Shown: positions 3,701-21,868 of the stretch, one piece after another
How positions within the stretch are numbered: position 1 is the first letter of the stretch
Layout of the letters: each line of letters begins with the position of its first letter
Virus record (IMG/VR): IMGVR_UViG_2700989545_000008
Reading direction: 5' to 3' (one strand)
DNA from: a virus
Lineage: Duplodnaviria > Heunggongvirae > Uroviricota > Caudoviricetes
DNA: 21,868 bases
The notes under the pieces: generated by a model
The model's input: the letters and a program-made list of their open reading frames with translations, nothing else
Told to the model about the DNA's origin: nothing
Databases searched by the model: none
Made by a program: the position numbers and the translations under genes

Positions 3701-6700
3701 CCGCATCGGCGTACTCCGGCAGGAAACGATAGGTGATCCGGCGATAGTACAGGTCCATGTCAGTACATACGCGGTCCATATCCCTGATTATTGAGAAGAT
3801 CGGACGGGCTTTCTCGTGCTCAATCACGCCGTCTTCATTGACCGAGGTCGTTACGCCATTGTTGGCTTTGGCCGCCGCTTCCGCCTGCTGACGCAATTCT
3901 TCATACGCCGCCAGTTGTTCTTCAGTAAGTGGTGCATCCTGCTGGTGTTCGTCCAGCTCCGGGATCTCCACGGTATCCTTAACGTCTTCCGCCGTTTTAA
4001 GCGTTACCCAGCGATGGAATATACCGCGCAGCGCATCAAGGTTTTCAAAGCCCACCAGCGCCATTTTTTCTTCAACTTCACCGCTAATTTTCTGTACCGT
4101 TTCCAGCCTGGTCTTGCCGAAGAATTTAACGAAGTCATCAGGACCGTAGATCCCCATGTTCTGCCAGTATTCCTTCGGCAGAACATGAGAAAGCATGTTG
4201 TATGCATCGATCGGGGTGTTAACGACTGGCGTTGCAGTCAGGAGAACCGGCCCGCGCCCGCCATTCTTTTTCATCAGGTACGCGTTTTTAATTGCCATAT
4301 CTCGCGCCGATTGCGCCACCGCGCTGGTGGGCAGATAGGCCAGTTGTGACGCTTCGCGACCATTTTTATAGCTATTGCGGTAGTTGTGACCTTCGTCGGC
4401 GATCACACTATCGAAGCCCATATCCTCAAAGTACGGATACTTCTCTGCTTTTTCGGTGCCGGTATCTGAATACTCCGACAATACCCGGCGACGCGCGGCC
4501 TCTTTGCGGTGGGAGTCGGAGTCCATTGCGCTGGCTACGCGCCCGGCTGCAACGAAGTCATAAAGCATATCCTGTGCATGCTCATCTACGGTGTCATCAC
4601 GTAGCGGAATGCGGGCGTATTGTTCTTTGGTAAACACGACTGCACGGTAATTTGAGTGCGGGATCGCGTTCATCCGCGCCGTGATAGTGGCTTCATCTGC
4701 CAGTTTTAGGGCATCGCGCATAACTGGAGTGCCATCAGTACCAAGAACAGGTTTACCGTTCTCATCGAGCACCGGCACCTGGCGAATCTGATCGCCATCC
4801 ATCAGCACATCAAGACCGACGAACAGGTAGTTACTGAATGCCTCTTCACTCAGGAATTCTTTTGCTTCGTAATACCAGTTTTCCAGCACTGATTTAGGCA
4901 CTACATACGCAGTACGGGTGGAGCGACCGTTCTCATAGTTGAACGCCTCAAGCGCCAGCGCGGTCGTAGTTTTACCCAGCCCGGTGCCGAAGCCCAGGAT
5001 GCCGCGCCCATCTTCGGACAGTCGGCGCACTTCGCTATTCTGGTAATCAAATGGCTGGCGCTTACCGCTTAATCCCTTCAACCCAAGCGGATCGCCAGAG
5101 TGTTCATACGGGATATTGCTATTGAACACATCGTTGTATTTGGCAACCAGTTCATCGTAGCGATCGTGCGTCTTGATCCACTTATTGAACTGGTCCTCAA
5201 GCAGTGCCATCTGCTCGCGGTAGCCGTTCGCCGTCGCGCTATCTTTGCCACCGATACGCGCACCATTGAGATACTTTTCCAGCTGTGCCGGGAACCCGGT
5301 CGCGTTTTCACCTGATTTACGGTCCCACTCGTAGCGGATCTCGCCTGTTTCTTTATCCTTGCGCTGGACGACACCGTATCGGTGCCCGACGAACAGGCCA
5401 TCACCACCGTGATAGGTGTCAGAAACCATTTCGTCGCCTTCCAGCTGCACTGACTGCACATAGCGCAGATCCGGATAGCCGTTTTCCTGCAAAAACTCCA
5501 GAATGACGGAACGGTCGAACCAACGGCTATTGAGCTTAAACCGGATATTCTCTGCTGGCGTCTTGATGCGCTTCTCTTCGATCGCTGCCAGCTGATTAAG
5601 GACGTTGTTCTTTACTGGACCGTCGGGGAGCGTGGCGAGGAATTCCTGTTTTGGAGCCACTATCTCGTTAATGTCGCCGCTGGTGGCGCGGGCGAACGGA
5701 ACAATCCCGCCATACGGTGAAACCGCAATACCAGGAGTGCTGGCCAATAAATTAAGCAACTCTTCATCACTGGCTGGCAATTCGCCGGTAAACGCAAGGC
5801 GGAAATCATCGAGCTGGATTGGATCGCGGGTAAGATCGCTATAGAGATAACGCAGGGTGTCCTGATAGCTGGTGGAGTCATAACTGGCGCTGGAATCATG
5901 CGTAACCAGCTTTCCTGTCAGCTCGTCAGAAATAGTGCCATCCAGCTTAATTGCACCACGGAAAGCAAACCAGGCGCGCGCACCGCTTCCCGATAATTTA
6001 GCTATCGGACCGCGACCAGGGTTACCAAAACGGTCAATCTCTGCCTGCAAACGGGATACCAGAGAAAGGCGCTGCTGTTCGATTTGTTCAGCACTATGCC
6101 CGGCGGCCTTCATATCCTGATATTCAATTAACATCCGGCCAATCATCGCCCCACGATACAAGCGTTCACGGTATTTTTCAGGCTGGCTGTTAATCCAGTC
6201 CACCAGCTGCACCATATCGTCGCTGATTGATGTGGTGTACTTATCGCGGACATTTGCCATCTGGGTAAATGTCATACCGAGACGGCCTTCTGTTGTAGTC
6301 AGGTTACGCTGAAGAGCCTCCCAGCTATCCGCGCCATAACTGGCAGCATCAATTTTAAGTTCCTTCCCGGCATCAGCTTCAATCCAGCGACCACCAGCAT
6401 ATTTTTGCCATACGCCATTAATCAGGCGCATTTCCCCTTCACCAACAACGTCTGCGGTCAGTGACGGTTCAGCCATATCGAGCAAAGACCAGTCGATACG
6501 GCTTTCGAAACGATGAATCAGCTTCGCTTTAAGAGCCTGGTTATCAATCTGACCGTCGGCACGAACCTCAATACGCCCCTGGAAGCCCTTTTCCTGGGTG
6601 CCATGAACAAACCGGCGGCCATCCTTTTCAAACCACTTGCCAGAAATAAACGTTGGCCAAAGCACATTTGCCGATTCAAGAGTGCTTTCATCCACCAGGG

Positions 6701-7550
6701 GGATTTTCTCAGCCATCTCTGCCGGATGTTTGCGCATCAGCACCACATCAACGACTGTACTGGTCCCGTTTGCGTCAAAAGTACCGGTAGGCAAGCGGTG
6801 GGCACCAAGAAATTCAGCTTTCCGTGATAGGCGCAGGCGTAACCGCTTCATGTTTGAACCTGAAACAATGGACGGCGGCACAATCACGCACATGAATCCG
6901 CCTGGCTTTATCTTGTCCAGCATGCGGAGCATGAAGTAAGAACCCATGTCCGTTTCTTCTGCGTAAGGCTTATCGATGTTGCGTGTGTTATCACGACCGC
7001 CGAACGGAACGTTACCCACAACATGGTCGAATGAATCGTTAGGCGTGCTTATAGCCAGCTGTTCGAACGGGGAAATCTGTACGCTGTCTTCCGGGTGTAA
7101 CAACTGGTTTATACGACCGGAAACACTGCTGATCTCAGTCGCGGTCATCACCGTACCAACCGGTTTTGTCTCATTAAAAACGCCGGTTCCCGCCGATGGT
7201 TCCAGAGTGTTACCTACGTCCGCGCCGTAGAGCTTCATGATCTCCCAGACACCTTCAGCGATCGGCTTTGGTGTGTAATATTCGGAGACGGACCCGCCAA
7301 TGCCGCCTTCACCGGTGTACCCAGCCAGGATCTGGCGCTGTTCATCTGTCAGTGTCGCGCCGTCCACCAGCGAATTAAGCAAATCTATCGCCTTCTGATT
7401 CGCCTCCCGGCGTAGTCGGTCATAGCTTTTGCCTTCCACCTTTTCCACGCCGTATCTAATCGGCGCTCGGTGAGATGTTATTGCCCTAATGTATTTCAAT
7501 ATTTCGCTGACACTTGAACAGCGAAACACCCCCATAGATAGCTTGTTCAT
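783..7550 (-). CDS. darB: DarB-like giant antirestriction protein (N6-adenine methyltransferase plus SF2 helicase)
   Basis: Uninterrupted 2255-aa ORF. N-terminal methyltransferase-type motifs (EPSAGTGVF; GNVPFGG); helicase Walker A (GFGTGLGKTTTALA) and DEGH box (VIADEGHNYRN). AAGGA Shine-Dalgarno 6 nt before the ATG. Size matches what I recall for P1 DarB. Confidence 0.85.
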   Translation of the reverse strand: MNKLSMGVFRCSSVSEILKYIRAITSHRAPIRYGVEKVEGKSYDRLRREANQKAIDLLNSLVDGATLTDEQRQILAGYTGEGGIGGSVSEYYTPKPIAEGVWEIMKLYGADVGNTLEPSAGTGVFNETKPVGTVMTATEISSVSGRINQLLHPEDSVQISPFEQLAISTPNDSFDHVVGNVPFGGRDNTRNIDKPYAEETDMGSYFMLRMLDKIKPGGFMCVIVPPSIVSGSNMKRLRLRLSRKAEFLGAHRLPTGTFDANGTSTVVDVVLMRKHPAEMAEKIPLVDESTLESANVLWPTFISGKWFEKDGRRFVHGTQEKGFQGRIEVRADGQIDNQALKAKLIHRFESRIDWSLLDMAEPSLTADVVGEGEMRLINGVWQKYAGGRWIEADAGKELKIDAASYGADSWEALQRNLTTTEGRLGMTFTQMANVRDKYTTSISDDMVQLVDWINSQPEKYRERLYRGAMIGRMLIEYQDMKAAGHSAEQIEQQRLSLVSRLQAEIDRFGNPGRGPIAKLSGSGARAWFAFRGAIKLDGTISDELTGKLVTHDSSASYDSTSYQDTLRYLYSDLTRDPIQLDDFRLAFTGELPASDEELLNLLASTPGIAVSPYGGIVPFARATSGDINEIVAPKQEFLATLPDGPVKNNVLNQLAAIEEKRIKTPAENIRFKLNSRWFDRSVILEFLQENGYPDLRYVQSVQLEGDEMVSDTYHGGDGLFVGHRYGVVQRKDKETGEIRYEWDRKSGENATGFPAQLEKYLNGARIGGKDSATANGYREQMALLEDQFNKWIKTHDRYDELVAKYNDVFNSNIPYEHSGDPLGLKGLSGKRQPFDYQNSEVRRLSEDGRGILGFGTGLGKTTTALALEAFNYENGRSTRTAYVVPKSVLENWYYEAKEFLSEEAFSNYLFVGLDVLMDGDQIRQVPVLDENGKPVLGTDGTPVMRDALKLADEATITARMNAIPHSNYRAVVFTKEQYARIPLRDDTVDEHAQDMLYDFVAAGRVASAMDSDSHRKEAARRRVLSEYSDTGTEKAEKYPYFEDMGFDSVIADEGHNYRNSYKNGREASQLAYLPTSAVAQSARDMAIKNAYLMKKNGGRGPVLLTATPVVNTPIDAYNMLSHVLPKEYWQNMGIYGPDDFVKFFGKTRLETVQKISGEVEEKMALVGFENLDALRGIFHRWVTLKTAEDVKDTVEIPELDEHQQDAPLTEEQLAAYEELRQQAEAAAKANNGVTTSVNEDGVIEHEKARPIFSIIRDMDRVCTDMDLYYRRITYRFLPEYADAVQQLADSLPKQATSEDDDSDDSITQQSQYSLIDKGEFIQLQVPEAFEQEVNKRLARFGIDEQTVTHPVTPKYAKLIATLKEFFPEGKQIIFTDEKTQHQKLKRIICNALNLEPSKVGILNAQTVAEAGKTGKKLKAVKPPKELPDEPTDAQIAKYNEQMALYDAYIAQQNEMSLGGLEKIAADFQEGRTPIIICNKKAEVGINLHRGTTDIHHLTLPWTPASIAQRNGRGARVGSNRASVRVHYYCGKGSFDEYRLKTLKRKAGWISDILRSDKSEMENADANDMIEMQMYTAKDDGERLAMMQVQMDKAKAAKRARQKEQATIDLQNYIKAQHAAGEDVEVLTAELERSKAELEKTTAEVAKFKQAVMAKAADNADWKARWGSVHHTDRMLLAQYRASLKSAIQRKANISQAISRYEKLLNRTQKAATDIKRLRPLVEDAINKGILDVDPDLVNHANEFLVIGDRSWRVGQYYDCAGDIVRIKSLDFDSQRADVEIIFTFKGTKSGNWDVKTLDKQVDVTPDEDAVMQKISGGVSIAGINDIISCDDFYRFQQRGMIKITDSYGVQTTESGYSIDFVGTYTDPLKHAVYPDRRDGALKSSIAKWVLGMMSEGNNRQIRSAETFLVELFGSNYGDVIASYGDTLSPEAIQEKIADAIARMPEKTSQGATRNGDSELEVTNAIFGTNEFRASDYEITTAQFGTIGIYSNKAEIKQAMDAASARIAAEREANLNHAVAALTQSWVTAIREAATTGKITPAIADVVNDGSKFMDAYQMDAVKLPSAYGQLSYRMTYNLVSMFSDLAILGLVDLNEVTPELLSMRKNHVEILQRINTVLAGRTDEEKQADADRINLALGNITEEEIAARNEKQEELSSIQGDATSIAQSLGLNYRVSTADLKMMYAPKFAAGEVFGLQEASGMKGVLFRAKDAIKAKFGARWLPAKAKNSDFPGNWWIIETKHNVADVLAVIQQYA

Positions 7551-10347
<2,797 letters not shown>

Positions 10348-11328: not shown

Positions 11329-11345
11329 TATTGCTCTAATTAATT
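11329..11345 (+). promoter_or_regulatory. C1-repressor operator-like 17-mer upstream of ssb
   Basis: ATTGCTCTAATTAATTT matches the asymmetric P1 C1 operator consensus as I recall it (ATTGCTCTAATAAATTT) at 16 of 17 positions; ends 20 nt before the ssb start codon. Confidence 0.5.
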
Positions 11346-11365
11346 TATTTTATTAGGTAAGATAA

Positions 11366-17096: not shown

Positions 17097-19012
17097 GCCG
17101 CTACCCCCGCTTTCTGGATTGCTACCAACAGATCAGCCAGGTGGCGAGCTGCGCCGTTAACCAGCTCTTCGTTTTCCTCAAAACGTCCGGCAGCCTGAAG
17201 GGCTGCAATCGCTTCCCGGACATTGCCCCGGGCGTTACGGATCTCCGCCATGTCAGTGCTTTGTATATCCATCACGTTATTGAGATATTCAATGGCTTTA
17301 TTAGCCTCTGCATCTGCTTCGCTAACCGTTTCATCAGGCTGTGCCGGGGCCGGTTCTGGCTGAGGAATCTCACCGACTTCGGCCTGCAATGCATTGATCA
17401 TGCTCTGCACCATTTTCTCGGTGCCAGCGCCCCCAGGAAACGCAATATTGGGGAAAGTTTTTTGAAACTGAGTTTTCAGCATTACGCGGAACTCGTCTGG
17501 TGAGCTGGTGGCCAGCTCCAGAGCTTTTTGTGAATATTTGCCAAACGGACCATTAGTAAGTGTCTTCGCCAGGAAGTCGAAAGAATCCTCGCGAGGCAAT
17601 AACTTCAGGTCGTACTCACTCATTTGCTGATCAGAAAGCGGGGTATCGTAAGTAGCAATGCCGTAGCGTGCATATTCATAATACGGGTCACCTTCATCAG
17701 GGCGCGGCAGAATTGCTTTGTTACCTTCAGGTATTGCGCCAGGGGCCGCCGGACGCATTTGCAGGGCATATCGATATGCACCTACAGAGACTTCTGGTTC
17801 AGGCGAAGAGCTACCGGTATCCTCCGCTGGTTCAGGTTCGACGTTTTCCGGTTTATGTTCTTCTGGTTGGACCAGGTATTCCGATACATTACCCGCTTTA
17901 TAGGCTTTAAACAGCTTGCCGATCGCATCTGCCATGTCCACACCCTGTATGGATTTAGCCTTGATCATGTATACGCTGCCATCCGGATCGGTTAACTGGA
18001 TATACCCTTCGCCGCCCCCAATGAATTGCTTCATTGATGCACCATTACTGAGCGTCACTTCCCCGTCCATATGCATACGATTTTTGATACTGGCAAGGCG
18101 ATCCGTCAGCGCGCGAGAGTGCCCACCAGTCATCCCCGCTGGAGCAATGGTATCGCGCCCACCAGTGCGATTGAGCTGATCAATCTCCGTCTGCAAACGC
18201 TCATTCTCTTCATAAAGAGAATCCGCTTCCGATGCAACAGCGTTAATTTTCTGCTCCAGATCTGCCTTCTGCCCTTCTACCGCTGCCACCTGATCCGCGA
18301 GGTCGCTCATGGCATCCTCTTTCTGGTCACTGTCAGCCTGTAGTTGGGTTATTTCATCAACAAGGGCTTTTTTCTTCTTCTGCGCACGCTGGAATTTTGC
18401 CGAGTTTTTCTCTGCAAGGTTGGCAAGTTTCATGGTGACCTGCGCCAGCGTCATATCACGTCCACTCATCGGAGCAACGGTGTGAGTAACGTCTTTTTTA
18501 TTCAGTAAGAACTGGAAAGCAACCAGCGTATCGCTATTGGTGATCCGGTTTTCCGCTGTCGGGCTATGAAACAGAATGCTGATAGTCTGACCATCACTGA
18601 GCGGAATAATGGCTGGCAAGACCGGCAGCCCGTTAACGTTACGTGCCCGGCCAATTTCAGCGCCGCCGATCGCGCGCGCGCCGCTCTGGGCCACATCCCC
18701 CGTTTTATCACTCCCCGCAGAGATTCCGGTACCATTCAGCTTCTGGTTCAATGCCCGGACAAATGCCTGCATGGTCCGGTGTAACTGCAAACGAGTAGAA
18801 CTAATCGCCTCCAGTAAATCCGTAGCACACCAGTGGATCGGCGTGTCATAGAAGAACGTAGCCTCGATTTCCTCCAGGGTGTTGGATTCCGTCATCAGAT
18901 AGCGGTCCTCACCGGCCATTAATGCGCGATATTCATCATCAGTCACTGGCGGGGGAAGCACGTCAAGCCCAGGCTTGATCGTCACCCCTTTATTGATATT
19001 GAACTGTTCCAT
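17093..19012 (-). CDS. darA: DarA-like capsid-internal antirestriction protein
   Basis: 639-aa ORF, the size I recall for P1 DarA. Shares a KNSAKFQ-containing segment (LANLAEKNSAKFQRAQKKKKA) and coiled-coil-like region with the upstream Hdf-like protein. Proline/glutamate-rich linkers. Confidence 0.7.
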   Translation of the reverse strand: MEQFNINKGVTIKPGLDVLPPPVTDDEYRALMAGEDRYLMTESNTLEEIEATFFYDTPIHWCATDLLEAISSTRLQLHRTMQAFVRALNQKLNGTGISAGSDKTGDVAQSGARAIGGAEIGRARNVNGLPVLPAIIPLSDGQTISILFHSPTAENRITNSDTLVAFQFLLNKKDVTHTVAPMSGRDMTLAQVTMKLANLAEKNSAKFQRAQKKKKALVDEITQLQADSDQKEDAMSDLADQVAAVEGQKADLEQKINAVASEADSLYEENERLQTEIDQLNRTGGRDTIAPAGMTGGHSRALTDRLASIKNRMHMDGEVTLSNGASMKQFIGGGEGYIQLTDPDGSVYMIKAKSIQGVDMADAIGKLFKAYKAGNVSEYLVQPEEHKPENVEPEPAEDTGSSSPEPEVSVGAYRYALQMRPAAPGAIPEGNKAILPRPDEGDPYYEYARYGIATYDTPLSDQQMSEYDLKLLPREDSFDFLAKTLTNGPFGKYSQKALELATSSPDEFRVMLKTQFQKTFPNIAFPGGAGTEKMVQSMINALQAEVGEIPQPEPAPAQPDETVSEADAEANKAIEYLNNVMDIQSTDMAEIRNARGNVREAIAALQAAGRFEENEELVNGAARHLADLLVAIQKAGVAA

Positions 19013-19013
19013 G

Positions 19014-19616
19014 TTAATTTCCTGCTTTCAGTTGCTTAAGACGGCGTTTGAGTTCGCCATTTCGGGCCTTTTCGTTATTGAGTCGGCCTGTCTCCTTATC
19101 CAGCTTCGCCCGCAAATCAGTGATCTGCTGTTGATTGAAAGACACCGAGTTCTGCGCTGATTTATAAGCGGCAACCACCTGAGCATTCCGCTGTTTTGCC
19201 TCTTGCAGGCGCTGAAAGTTGGATTTTACTGCCGGTTTCTTGTCTACCGGATTGGCAACACGTTTCGCTTTGGCGATCAGTGATTTCTGGAATTTTGCGG
19301 AGTTTTTGCGGGCCGCTTGCCCCATGACGGTACCAAGCGTCTTGATATCCGGCGACTGAGCGTTAGGAATAGCTTTTCCATTCAGCCTCACAGACGATAT
19401 ATCGCCAGTATCGTTTACCTGTATGGCAAGAATTTGTCCGTCGTTAAGAACCAGCTTTGCGGTTTTAACTTTAACGCCATCTTTCGTTGTTGCGCGGTTG
19501 CTGGAGTCAACCTCAATTACCGTAACACCGGTTTTATTGATCGCCGCGATAAGGGATTTCAGCCCCTTTTCATTAACCTGGTCAAAATCGACCGTTGCAT
19601 ACTTATTTTTCGTCAT
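19014..19616 (-). CDS. hdf: Hdf-like protein (head-size determination factor; DarA paralogue)
   Basis: Second ATG (MTKNKYATVDF...) is preceded by GGATG-type Shine-Dalgarno; about 200 aa. Contains AARKNSAKFQKSLIAKAK, resembling the DarA segment. Ends 1 nt before the darA start. Confidence 0.6.
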   Translation of the reverse strand: MTKNKYATVDFDQVNEKGLKSLIAAINKTGVTVIEVDSSNRATTKDGVKVKTAKLVLNDGQILAIQVNDTGDISSVRLNGKAIPNAQSPDIKTLGTVMGQAARKNSAKFQKSLIAKAKRVANPVDKKPAVKSNFQRLQEAKQRNAQVVAAYKSAQNSVSFNQQQITDLRAKLDKETGRLNNEKARNGELKRRLKQLKAGN

Positions 19617-20046
19617 CTGACACATCCTGTGCGAGATTTATTACGTAACTTCTGCGGATTTGCTGAGTAACAGGGAAAATCCGATACAACGGGTTAATGA
19701 ACGAGTCGCCATGCGTAACCATGACGTTGAAATGCCACAGTCGCTCTCCTTTACCCATATATTCAGTGGGTATGTACAACCATTCACTGTTTTCGCCCTG
19801 TTCAGCCGACGTCAAACAACGTTGTTCGCCTTCAATCACTGTCGTCGGCTTCTGAACATCGCGGATCCAATATCTGACCGTTGCGCCGCGCAAAAACGGG
19901 AATTTAGACCGGTATTTGAACGGCACCCGGATGAAACCCGGTTTAATTTCCACATCACCAAGTTCTAAATGCGTGATGTCCTTGCGTTTTAGCAAATAGC
20001 GATCGGCTAAGGCTAACGCAAGAACGCATACACCCCAGCCAATCAT
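19603..20046 (-). CDS. lydB: LydB-like lysis regulator (antiholin)
   Basis: 147-aa ORF; ATG overlaps the lydA stop (ATGA); N-terminal hydrophobic segment. Position matches lydA-lydB-hdf-darA order. Confidence 0.55.
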   Translation of the reverse strand: MIGWGVCVLALALADRYLLKRKDITHLELGDVEIKPGFIRVPFKYRSKFPFLRGATVRYWIRDVQKPTTVIEGEQRCLTSAEQGENSEWLYIPTEYMGKGERLWHFNVMVTHGDSFINPLYRIFPVTQQIRRSYVINLAQDVSDDEK

Positions 20047-20372
20047 TTCCCGCCTCCCTTTTTCACCAAACTTGTAAGAACATTCAGAATGCTATCGATA
20101 TTCACTCGTTTCATCCCTGAAATCACCTCATGACCGTTATTGCTGGCTATCGTTACCATTAAGTACGTAATTGATAACTCCCAGCCCTCGTGTTGCCCCA
20201 ATAGGTACGCCACCGCGCCAGCTGTCACTGCAACAAAGATCTCCGTAACCAATCCCAACAAATTGCCAGACTGGCGACCGTCTCGGACATCCATCAGGAA
20301 CGTGCCTATCCCACCAATTACTGAAAGCAGGAGCGCAATAGCAACTGGAGCTAATTCCTGTGTGTCAAGCAC
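20043..20372 (-). CDS. lydA: LydA-like holin
   Basis: 109 aa, GTG start with a GGAGG Shine-Dalgarno 6 nt upstream. Two to three hydrophobic helices and a charged C-terminus (KKGGGK). Confidence 0.6.
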   Translation of the reverse strand: MLDTQELAPVAIALLLSVIGGIGTFLMDVRDGRQSGNLLGLVTEIFVAVTAGAVAYLLGQHEGWELSITYLMVTIASNNGHEVISGMKRVNIDSILNVLTSLVKKGGGK

Positions 20373-20446
20373 AAGTTCCCTCCTACGTTGTCAGGAGGTA
20401 ATGGTATGCAAAGTAACTTCTCAACCGGTTATGTTGCATAAGAGAC

Positions 20447-20710
20447 TTACCTATTCAACCGACTTTTGGAACCTTCAATAATAAGCCTGCTATTGGCGCT
20501 GAAAATAAGAACCATGCAGCTCTGAAGGCTTTCATTCATGTCCTTATATTCCGCGAGATACATGCCAATAAAGCCAGCAAGTACGGCGGAAATACATTCG
20601 GCCAGCAATTTCTTGCATGAAGACTCGTAACGGTTTTCACATAGCCCACTCAAATACGAATACACCCCACCAAGAAGGGATAACATCACGATATGTACAT
20701 AAAATGTCAT
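20447..20710 (-). CDS. Small membrane protein upstream of lydA (possible additional holin-like gene)
   Basis: 87-aa ORF with two hydrophobic segments; AGGT 5 nt before the ATG; 74 nt upstream of lydA on the same strand. Confidence 0.4.
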   Translation of the reverse strand: MTFYVHIVMLSLLGGVYSYLSGLCENRYESSCKKLLAECISAVLAGFIGMYLAEYKDMNESLQSCMVLIFSANSRLIIEGSKSRLNR

Positions 20711-20837
20711 TTTTTACCTATACAACAGTAAGTTGAACAACATTTGAGAACGGTATGCACTTTGTGATTTCCACACACACTGGTTTTGTTAATTAAAACC
20801 TGTAGCTTGCAATAAATAACGATAGTGGGCAGAAAAT

Positions 20838-21023
20838 ATGCTAATAGGCTATGTACGCATATAGACAAATGAACAAAACACAGCTATGCAGTGAAAAGCA
20901 CTTGAAAGCGCAGGATGTGAGCTAATTTTTGCGAATAAGGCGAGCAGCAAAAAAGCTGGACACCCTGGGTTAAAAAAGGTTCTGCGTATGCTTTCCAGAG
21001 GTGATACCCTAGTCTCGGACTAG
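20838..21023 (+). pseudogene. Degenerate N-terminal fragment of a Hin/Gin/Cin-type serine invertase
   Basis: Hand translation from ATG 20838 gives MLIGYVRI*TNEQNTAMQ*KALESAGCELIFANKASSKKAGHPGLKKVLRMLSRGDTLVSD*, collinear with the Cin-like N-terminus on the opposite strand. A stop sits where the catalytic serine should be, and two more in-frame stops follow. Confidence 0.65.
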
Positions 21024-21145
21024 GGACAACATTTCGAGAACAGTTTTCATTAGCGGCCAGCAGGCGCTAGATACATCGAATTGATGTGCCGCGCGATAAA
21101 TGTACCTATTCTATCAAGATAAATTACACCGACGCGGCATTTGAA

Positions 21146-21718
21146 TTACAGCTCAGATTGAGTTTGGCGCTTCTCTACAGGATGATAACGATAAATCGTC
21201 GATACACCGATATCGTAAATAATTGCCAACTGTTTCCTGCTGTAGCCATTTTCGATCAACCTCGCTATTTGCTCATGTTGTTCTTTTGTCAACTTCGGGC
21301 GACGTCCGCCAATGCGTCCCTGTTCGCGTGCAGCTGCCAGTCCGGCCAGTGTTCTCTCAACAATTAATTCACGTTCCATTTCTGCTAAAGCACCCATGAC
21401 ATGAAAAAAGAAACGCCCCATGGGTGTTGATGTGTCAATACTGTCTGTCAGACTACGGAAATTAACACCTTTTTCCCGCAACTCCTCTATAAGCGTGATA
21501 AGGTGTTTCATACTTCTGCCAAGCCTATCCAGCTTCCAGACAACCAGCGTATCTCCTTCTGATAAGGTTCTGAGCAGCTTTTTCAAGCCTGGTCTGGCTG
21601 ACTTTGTTCCGCTTATTTTATCTTCAAAAATCAGTTCACATCCTGCGCAGTTCAGTGCATTTCTTTGTAAATCTGTGTTTTGGTCATTTGTTGACACACG
21701 AATGTAGCCAATTTGCAT
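21146..21718 (-). CDS. cin: Cin/Hin/Gin-family site-specific DNA invertase
   Basis: ATG (MQIGYIRVSTNDQNTDLQRNAL...) preceded by GAGG with a 9-nt spacer; the track's TTG start is 3 codons upstream. Serine-recombinase catalytic region and C-terminal helix-turn-helix; ~190 aa. Confidence 0.85.
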   Translation of the reverse strand: MQIGYIRVSTNDQNTDLQRNALNCAGCELIFEDKISGTKSARPGLKKLLRTLSEGDTLVVWKLDRLGRSMKHLITLIEELREKGVNFRSLTDSIDTSTPMGRFFFHVMGALAEMERELIVERTLAGLAAAREQGRIGGRRPKLTKEQHEQIARLIENGYSRKQLAIIYDIGVSTIYRYHPVEKRQTQSEL

Positions 21719-21772
21719 GAAAAACAACCTCTTTGTTTAGTTAAAAATACATCGTTGGTATAGGTAGGGATT

Positions 21773-21798
21773 AAGACTAAAACGTTGGTTTGGGGGAA
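21773..21798. other. cix-like crossover site for the invertase
   Basis: Reverse complement TTCCCCCAAACC-AA-CGTTTTAGTCTT has the 12-2-12 architecture and AAACC / GGTTT-type half-sites of hix/gix/cix sites; about 55 bp from the cin start. Confidence 0.55.
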
Positions 21799-21868
21799 GG
21801 CTCTGCACTGCCTGTTGGTGTGCCCGTTCCGTGGCCCTTAGAAACACCACCAACTGGCTGGCTAAAAT
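21781..21868 (+). CDS. Partial ORF entering the invertible segment (possible tail-fibre variable part, currently uncoupled)
   Basis: Frame opens just after a TAA inside the cix site and runs to the window end (NVGLGEGSALPVGVPVPWPLETPPTGWLK); the proline/glycine/tryptophan-rich stretch reminded me of tail-fibre variable regions. No start codon in view. Confidence 0.25.

Follow-up and report, generated by a model that had tools for sequence, protein, structure and literature searches.

A decayed cin 5' remnant beside a Min-type invertase gene on a P1-type backbone

Two described systems are close to the locus analysed here. The first is bacteriophage P1 (AF234172), with its working DNA invertase gene cin at 31660-32220. 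The P1 record places the predicted promoter P1cin, a ribosome-binding site, cin codons 1-59 and an internal recombinational enhancer within 31570-31836. The second is plasmid p15B of E. coli 15T-, which carries the invertase Min. Sandmeier and colleagues reportedly found in 1991 a truncated invertase 5' region beside min and named it psi-cin, and are said to have proposed in 1992 that Min had replaced a Cin-like system in ancestral p15B. We found no accessible text in the literature that describes this remnant; the P1 GenBank record cross-references the homology to p15B. Among other elements, PMC6906374 describes a P1-like plasmid with an invertase that shares 98.5% identity with p15B Min and is reversed relative to P1 cin, as well as pTZ20_1P, which has a delta-cin, and pSvP1, which has a partial cin.

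We analysed a stretch of 21,868 nucleotides of Caudoviricetes DNA, IMG/VR record IMGVR_UViG_2700989545_000008, called the window in the following. It holds a remnant of the same kind, for which we use the name psi-cin. We consider it very probable that this remnant is an inert relic of the resident cin, marking the left junction at which a replacement module was illegitimately joined.

The remnant and its neighbours on the P1 backbone

From 20838 to 21035, the plus strand of the window translates as MLIGYVRI, a stop, TNEQNTAMQ, a second stop, KALESAGCELIFANKASSKKAGHPGLKKVLRMLSRGDTLVSD and a final stop. This is collinear with the N-terminus of the intact invertase encoded on the other strand (Table 1), which begins MQIGYIRVSTNDQNTDLQRNALNCAGCELIFEDKISGTKSARPGLKKLLRTLSEGDTLVV. 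Pfam Resolvase (PF00239) matched psi-cin residues 3-59 with the stops masked (E=2.8e-9) and was the sole match in the Pfam search; an HTH domain, present in the intact neighbour, was absent from psi-cin. When 20700-21150 was searched against phage genomes by megablast, 20749-21014 aligned with P1 31570-31836 at 89% identity (89.1%) with one gap (E=1e-88), a similarity far beyond chance. An earlier, sequence-only reading of this DNA had proposed an N-terminal invertase pseudogene at 20838-21023, and the translation, the PF00239 match and the DNA match to P1 cin all bore this out. As it had also stated, the remnant lies on the opposite strand about 120 bp from the end of the intact gene; the gap to the 3' end measures 122 bp and the genes are convergent. 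Its start held for the codons, which indeed begin at 20838, but the homology begins earlier, with the cin promoter region from about 20749. In the pairwise alignment, P1 homology was unbroken from there to its end at ...GGTGATACCCTAGTC (21014), and there was none past this position. An uninterrupted ORF of about 185-190 codons is absent from psi-cin, its homology ending at codon 59 and being interrupted by stops at codons 9 and 19.

Table 1. Features around psi-cin and their coordinates in the window
Feature	Start	End	Strand	Basis or description
LPdar, late promoter (-10 and -22 box) of the lydA-lydB-hdf-darA operon	20401	20419	-	atggtatgcaaagtaactt, identical to P1 31212-31230, annotated LPdar
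lydC, variant allele, 87 aa	20447	20710	-	ORF; annotated LydC in vB_EcoM-813R1
Direct repeat, left copy	20737	20751	+	ACAACATTTGAGAAC, a native part of the DNA between lydC and cin in this lydC allele
cin promoter region remnant (P1cin homologue)	20749	20837	+	P1 alignment and P1 annotation
psi-cin, P1-type cin codons 1-59	20838	21014	+	P1 alignment, translation, Pfam
Recombinational enhancer homologue	20856	20927	+	86.1% identical to P1 31678-31749 (annotated enhancer inside cin)
Junction fold-back	21007	21025		CCCTAGTC (last 8 nt of psi-cin), TCG, GACTAGGG (perfect inverted copy)
Direct repeat, right copy	21026	21041	+	ACAACATTTCGAGAAC, left end of the putative incoming segment
Spacer of Min-type cassette, 104 bp	21042	21145		Seen in P1-like Min-type elements alone
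Intact Min/Pin-type DNA invertase, 190 aa	21146	21718	-	Pfam Resolvase (E=2e-51) and HTH_7
Crossover-site-like 26-mer	21773	21798	-	TTCCCCCAAACC AA CGTTTTAGTCTT, upstream of the invertase 5' end

The comparison of the whole window with P1 gave one collinear block, 17759-21014 against 28570-31836 (95.3%), which spans darA, hdf, lydB, lydA, lydC and the cin 5' end and stops inside cin. Over its first 180 nt, psi-cin was 86.7% identical to P1 cin, 85.6% to P7 cin, 82.8% to D6 cin and 86.1% to the cin stub of SJ46. Identity to the neighbouring invertase was 65.0% over 180 nt, and blastn aligned just 94 nt of the two (75.5%). Collinearity and identity values together argue that the stub is the backbone's own cin and that the intact gene is the incomer. 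The sequence-only reading had considered a past recombination between invertase cassettes, with a second invertase module once abutting the locus. The exchange stands; the second module does not, the stub being the resident. Its other proposal, a decayed tandem duplicate, would be an inverted copy of the neighbouring intact invertase, and such a copy would indeed adjoin the intact gene and be collinear with its N-terminus. We regard this origin as extremely improbable, given the identity of 86.7% to P1 cin against 65.0% to the neighbour, and P1 homology that takes in the cin promoter and the backbone upstream of it, which is not expected for a copy of the neighbour. That reading had also named an intact conserved feature in P1 as an objection to a pseudogene. 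In one sense P1 has such a feature, since its sequence is the working cin 5' end, and this explains the remnant rather than refuting it.

A regulatory role towards the darA operon had been suggested as well, with the remnant occupying its upstream region and importing regulatory sequence. Both parts failed. The remnant is upstream of lydC and not directly upstream of the late promoter: LPdar, unchanged from P1, is placed between lydA and lydC, outside the remnant and about 420 bp from the stub, with lydC intervening. Since the stub sits where P1 cin sits relative to lydC, no regulatory sequence was imported. The lydC allele itself is 84.4% identical to P1 31346-31499. In the P7 annotation, a C1 operator for lydC is found directly beside the cin start, and the intergenic DNA adjoining psi-cin is probably kept for the need of lydC.

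The intact invertase, 69.7% identical to P1 cin and in reverse orientation, falls in the UniRef100 cluster with the representative Q05517_ECOLX ('DNA-invertase'), which we take to be the p15B Min entry. Its own enhancer region, presumably active, is 81-83% identical to that of P1. The invertible tail-fibre region, lying largely beyond the window, has its edge at the 26-mer upstream of the invertase gene, and the half-site of this 26-mer matches the invertase crossover consensus quoted in PMC4134206. When the window was compared with the otherwise near-identical loci L002, L004 and L012, the invertase gene proved mosaic, with 90 variable columns in 573 nt; the stub had 4 in 180 nt. An exchange of alleles within the invertase gene is suggested by this. 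In vB_EcoM-813R1, the invertase gene is annotated as two CDS, Hin1 and Hin2.

Decay of the remnant and possible functions in cis

Decay was measured against the consensus of the cin sequences of P1, P7, D6 and SJ46. At 20862-20864, TAG replaces codon 9, the catalytic serine, which is TCA in all four; the stop at the catalytic serine noted in the sequence-only reading is therefore real. A second stop, TGA at 20892-20894, stands for codon 19, an arginine (CGA) in the consensus. The third of the in-frame stops in that reading, TAG at 21021-21023, lies in an inverted filler past 21014, where the homology breaks off, so that two of the three belong to homologous sequence. We counted 19 substitutions private to psi-cin, distributed over codon positions 1:2:3 as 6:5:8. 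Sixteen of the 59 homologous codons differ from the consensus, two by nonsense, eight by missense and six by synonymous changes; codon 60 differs as well, but sits at the junction. The missense changes include D33N and R42H, and Ser9, Asp33 and Arg42 are thus all lost. By homology with resolvase and invertase active sites, D33 and R42 belong to the catalytic pocket. In the intact cin genes, private changes were almost only synonymous and the protein was nearly invariant. The few columns that vary among copies of the stub are as frequent as in the flanking genes and too few to measure selection. We conclude that the stub is decaying and makes no protein, and that it has probably drifted without selection.

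The promoter region showed comparable traces. A -35 box, TTTCCA, is found at 20768-20773. The -10 box at 20794-20799 reads TAAAAC, where P1 has TAAAAT, and the T at the last position is lost; a second -10-like box at 20811-20817 reads AATAAAT in place of the TATAAAT of P1. The T-run in the promoter spacer has a 1-nt deletion relative to P1. A consensus scan of 20711-20837 returned no promoter-like site, and Rfam returned no match in 20350-21868 at E up to 1. Within the enhancer homologue, 10 of 72 positions differ from P1, all of them in the 5' two-thirds, and the 3' part is identical to P1. One of the differing positions falls, as we take it, on the initial base of the segment aligned with the distal Fis site of hin.

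Two side observations concern the same DNA. By eye, 20778-20803 resembles an invertase crossover half-site, ...CACACTGGTTTTGTTAA in the window and GGTTTTTGTTAA in P1, the window having one T fewer; it may correspond to the quasi-cix site reported for the P1 cin promoter. On the minus strand, a TTG-initiated ORF of 53 aa (20707-20868) runs antisense through the stub start and the cin promoter. Its end overlaps the lydC start codon as ATGA; the ORF is Cys-rich, has no annotated P1 counterpart and is probably spurious.

It might be asked whether the stub is kept for a function in cis: as a second Fis-dependent enhancer for Min inversion, as a quasi-crossover site, for convergent transcription into the invertase gene, for lydC regulation or as a homology patch by which the Min cassette could pass, through homologous recombination, from one cin-bearing relative to another. 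It does cover the whole enhancer annotated in P1, at 86% identity and with the unchanged 3' part just described, a conservation like that of the neighbour's own enhancer region; it was present in every Min-type copy seen, and the same spacer and invertase are attached to P1-type and D6-type stubs alike. These copies, however, are at least 98% identical, so that the universal presence of the stub reflects recent common descent rather than selection. The changed enhancer positions, the damaged -10 boxes, and the scans for promoters and Rfam families also speak against a function, as does the drift of the repeat copies and the junction palindrome in a second sub-variant (see below). Stubs in other lineages comprise 17 to about 103 codons, and no particular part is therefore required. 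Taken together, we find a retained function in cis very unlikely, and the relic of the resident cin described above is likely to lack residual function.

A related proposal gives the stub a role in recombination. Since it is about 85% identical to cin genes and has an enhancer half unchanged from P1, it could serve as a homology anchor, perhaps also as an auxiliary Fis enhancer, when Min cassettes are swapped among P1-, P7- and D6-type phage-plasmids. If so, the whole Min host-range cassette would be exchanged by homologous recombination, together with the conserved constant region of the tail fibre, and cin 5' stubs would be functional 'module adaptors' rather than scars. We would give this proposal little credence.

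The junction, its distribution and the probable course of the exchange

The 11 nt that follow the end of P1 homology, 21015-21025, form a filler with no other origin than the fold-back in Table 1. Its right arm, GACTAGGG at 21018-21025, would pair with the last nucleotides of psi-cin in a predicted 8-bp hairpin and carries the third stop mentioned above. The arrangement suggests that the filler was made by hairpin or fold-back repair during illegitimate joining.

A repeat of 15/16 nt, ACAACATTT(C)GAGAAC, flanks the remnant. The window holds two copies, and none of 100 shuffles gave two. The left copy also occurs in E. fergusonii pRHB41-C23_2, upstream of another cin stub of greater length; it is present at 3679-3693 of L020. 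Most simply, the donor segment would have started in lydC-proximal sequence of a similar kind, with the repeat copies of both parents being retained. Twelve IMG/VR contigs represent a second sub-variant, in which substitutions have affected the palindrome as well as the two repeat copies and the junction reads GGCTAGGG; this marks repeat and palindrome as drifting scars and not as conserved sites. A donor lacking psi-cin, with lydC, repeat and spacer in direct succession, was sought with a synthetic junction against PLSDB, which gave only two-piece matches containing the stub, and by exact-pattern scans of IMG/VR and GTDB representatives, where this junction was not found.

Functional identities tried for the repeat were discarded. 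It had no match to the -22 box of LPdar (AAGTTACTT in P1) and, judged by eye, resembled a cix half-site poorly outside GTTCTC. Nor did it match the consensus of the C1 operator, matches to which occurred in the window only elsewhere: the 17-mer ATTGCTCTAATTAATTT at 11330-11346 has one mismatch to the operator consensus of the P1 C1 repressor, and 7480-7496 is a weaker match with three mismatches.

The spacer contains an inverted repeat (21079-21093 and 21133-21147) and a weak terminator-like site on the minus strand (21140 to 21126), just after the invertase stop codon. It was absent beside chromosomal pin-like genes, whose homology ends at the stop codon, and a search with 21015-21145 found no distant phage match beyond two near-identical P1-like phages and one weak match. 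D6-type plasmids with a different cin stub share the spacer from 21043 onward at 90.5%. In pEc-050-T0_3 and the IMG/VR contig L025, this D6-type stub extends to about codon 103-108 and is followed by the same spacer and a Min-type invertase.

This second junction raises the possibility that Min was captured only once, long ago, leaving a stub of about 103-108 codons, and that the 60-codon form arose by a later internal deletion with homogenisation of the 5' part to the local backbone. P1-type and D6-type Min junctions would then not be independent captures. Besides the shared spacer and invertase, both stubs have ATA at codon 8 and the donor-side junctions are within about 15 nt of each other. 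On the other hand, each stub follows its own backbone, P1-type or D6-type, promoter region included; the fold-back filler duplicates the end of codon 59, in keeping with a primary break at that point; and intermediate forms were not found. A single capture followed by deletion therefore appears to us possible but rather doubtful.

From these data we infer the following order of events for the replacement of the resident cin. The ancestor would have had the gene order of P1, with lydA-lydC, cin, the C segment and the tail-fibre genes. A Min/Pin-type inversion cassette, made up of the spacer, the invertase on the opposite strand, the crossover site and several invertible tail-fibre segments, would then have taken the place of the C segment and of the 3' two-thirds of cin. 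Joining on the left would have been illegitimate, cin being cut after codon 59 and the fold-back filler of 11 nt being added, while a second copy of the 15-16 nt lydC-proximal sequence would have been retained from the donor. Afterwards the stub would have drifted without selection and its promoter boxes would have been damaged. It may persist only since nothing removes it and since the adjoining intergenic DNA probably still serves lydC.

The combination of stub, spacer and invertase was found in 147 PLSDB plasmids (at least 80% coverage), mostly non-mobilizable plasmids of about 95 kb from Escherichia, Salmonella and Klebsiella, and further in two sequenced phages, 23 IMG/VR contigs and one GTDB representative. 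The stub end with spacer and invertase was present in 198 of 5426 complete E. coli genomes. Both nonsense codons were present in every copy inspected. With P1 cin as query, 464 PLSDB records matched, but at least 80% of the gene is present in only 219. All partial matches in an evenly drawn sample of 60 rows began at cin nt 1 or 19 and ended at nt 52, 139/140, 177, 198, 212, 234/236, 264 or 307. About half of the cin-matching P1-like PLSDB plasmids thus carry only a 5'-anchored fragment of cin, with at least eight end points, and these varied end points indicate that replacement of the tail-fibre/inversion module with a junction inside cin happened repeatedly. At each cin-internal replacement junction, the lydC-proximal end alone survives. 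The modules that adjoin the stubs differ and include a Pin-type cassette, non-invertible tail fibres, an acetyltransferase and IS26.

Junctions read directly added at least five other P1-like lineages that have cin 5' stubs with different breakpoints. Apart from the D6-type stub described above, cin extends to about codon 79 in pRHB41-C23_2, to about codon 72 in pVPS18EC0801-3, where no invertase follows, and to codon 17 in A1_181/phi456. In SJ46, the stub (L019, 2599-2823) is an open 74-aa ORF annotated 'DNA invertase' and followed by a convergent pin. Its first 60 codons show no private amino-acid change, and it looks like a much younger truncation.

The value of psi-cin is modest and it opens no new mechanism. 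It may nevertheless serve as a nucleotide-precise marker of the left edge of a host-range module exchange that is recurrent in the P1 family, and it shows the Min/Pin-type cassette as an incomer on a Cin-type backbone. Many P1-like phage-plasmids carry resistance genes, and the pattern of cin stubs has some use in annotating and classifying the group. Annotation pipelines now in use either pass over the stub, as RefSeq does, or label it 'DNA invertase', as in SJ46. In the RefSeq/PGAP annotation of NZ_CP063155.1 (9544-12114), for instance, there is no feature between lydC and the invertase and the stub is unannotated.

Comparison with P1, other cin stubs and p15B

Relative to lydC, psi-cin has the same position and orientation as the working cin of P1. 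It lacks codons 60-186 of the latter and thereby the remainder of the catalytic domain, the HTH domain and cixL. In the part that is left, psi-cin differs from P1 cin by the replacement of the catalytic serine by a stop, by a second stop, by eight further residue changes and by the altered -10 box. The other cin 5' stubs resemble psi-cin in that the lydC-/lydA-proximal end is kept and the tail-fibre-proximal part lost, and they too are found at the left edge of a replaced tail-fibre/inversion module. They differ from it in their breakpoints, in the incoming sequences and in the degree of decay.

The closest likeness is to p15B. The P1 GenBank record lists homologies with p15B (X62121) of 99% for nt 7728-8294 and 84% for nt 7483-7638, and further ones of 89% with one gap for nt 7147-7408 and 83% for nt 6463-6533. 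We anchored p15B nt 7408 to position 20749 of the window and mapped the other coordinates without adjusting the spacing. The mapped intervals in the window gave 99.8%, 84.4%, 89% and 83.1% with the same P1 intervals, at the same spacing. As in the window, the cin remnant of p15B lies between lydC and the 3' end of the invertase gene. It comprises about 262 bp with 89% identity and one gap to P1 31570-31832, which the window reproduces, and the spacing to the invertase enhancer region and to the lydC and lydA blocks is the same; no differences were detected. Judged by the coordinates and percentages of the P1 record, the feature in the window thus matches the cin remnant of p15B and is in this sense already known. 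Its arrangement, that of p15B and common in P1-like plasmids, is an ordinary one.
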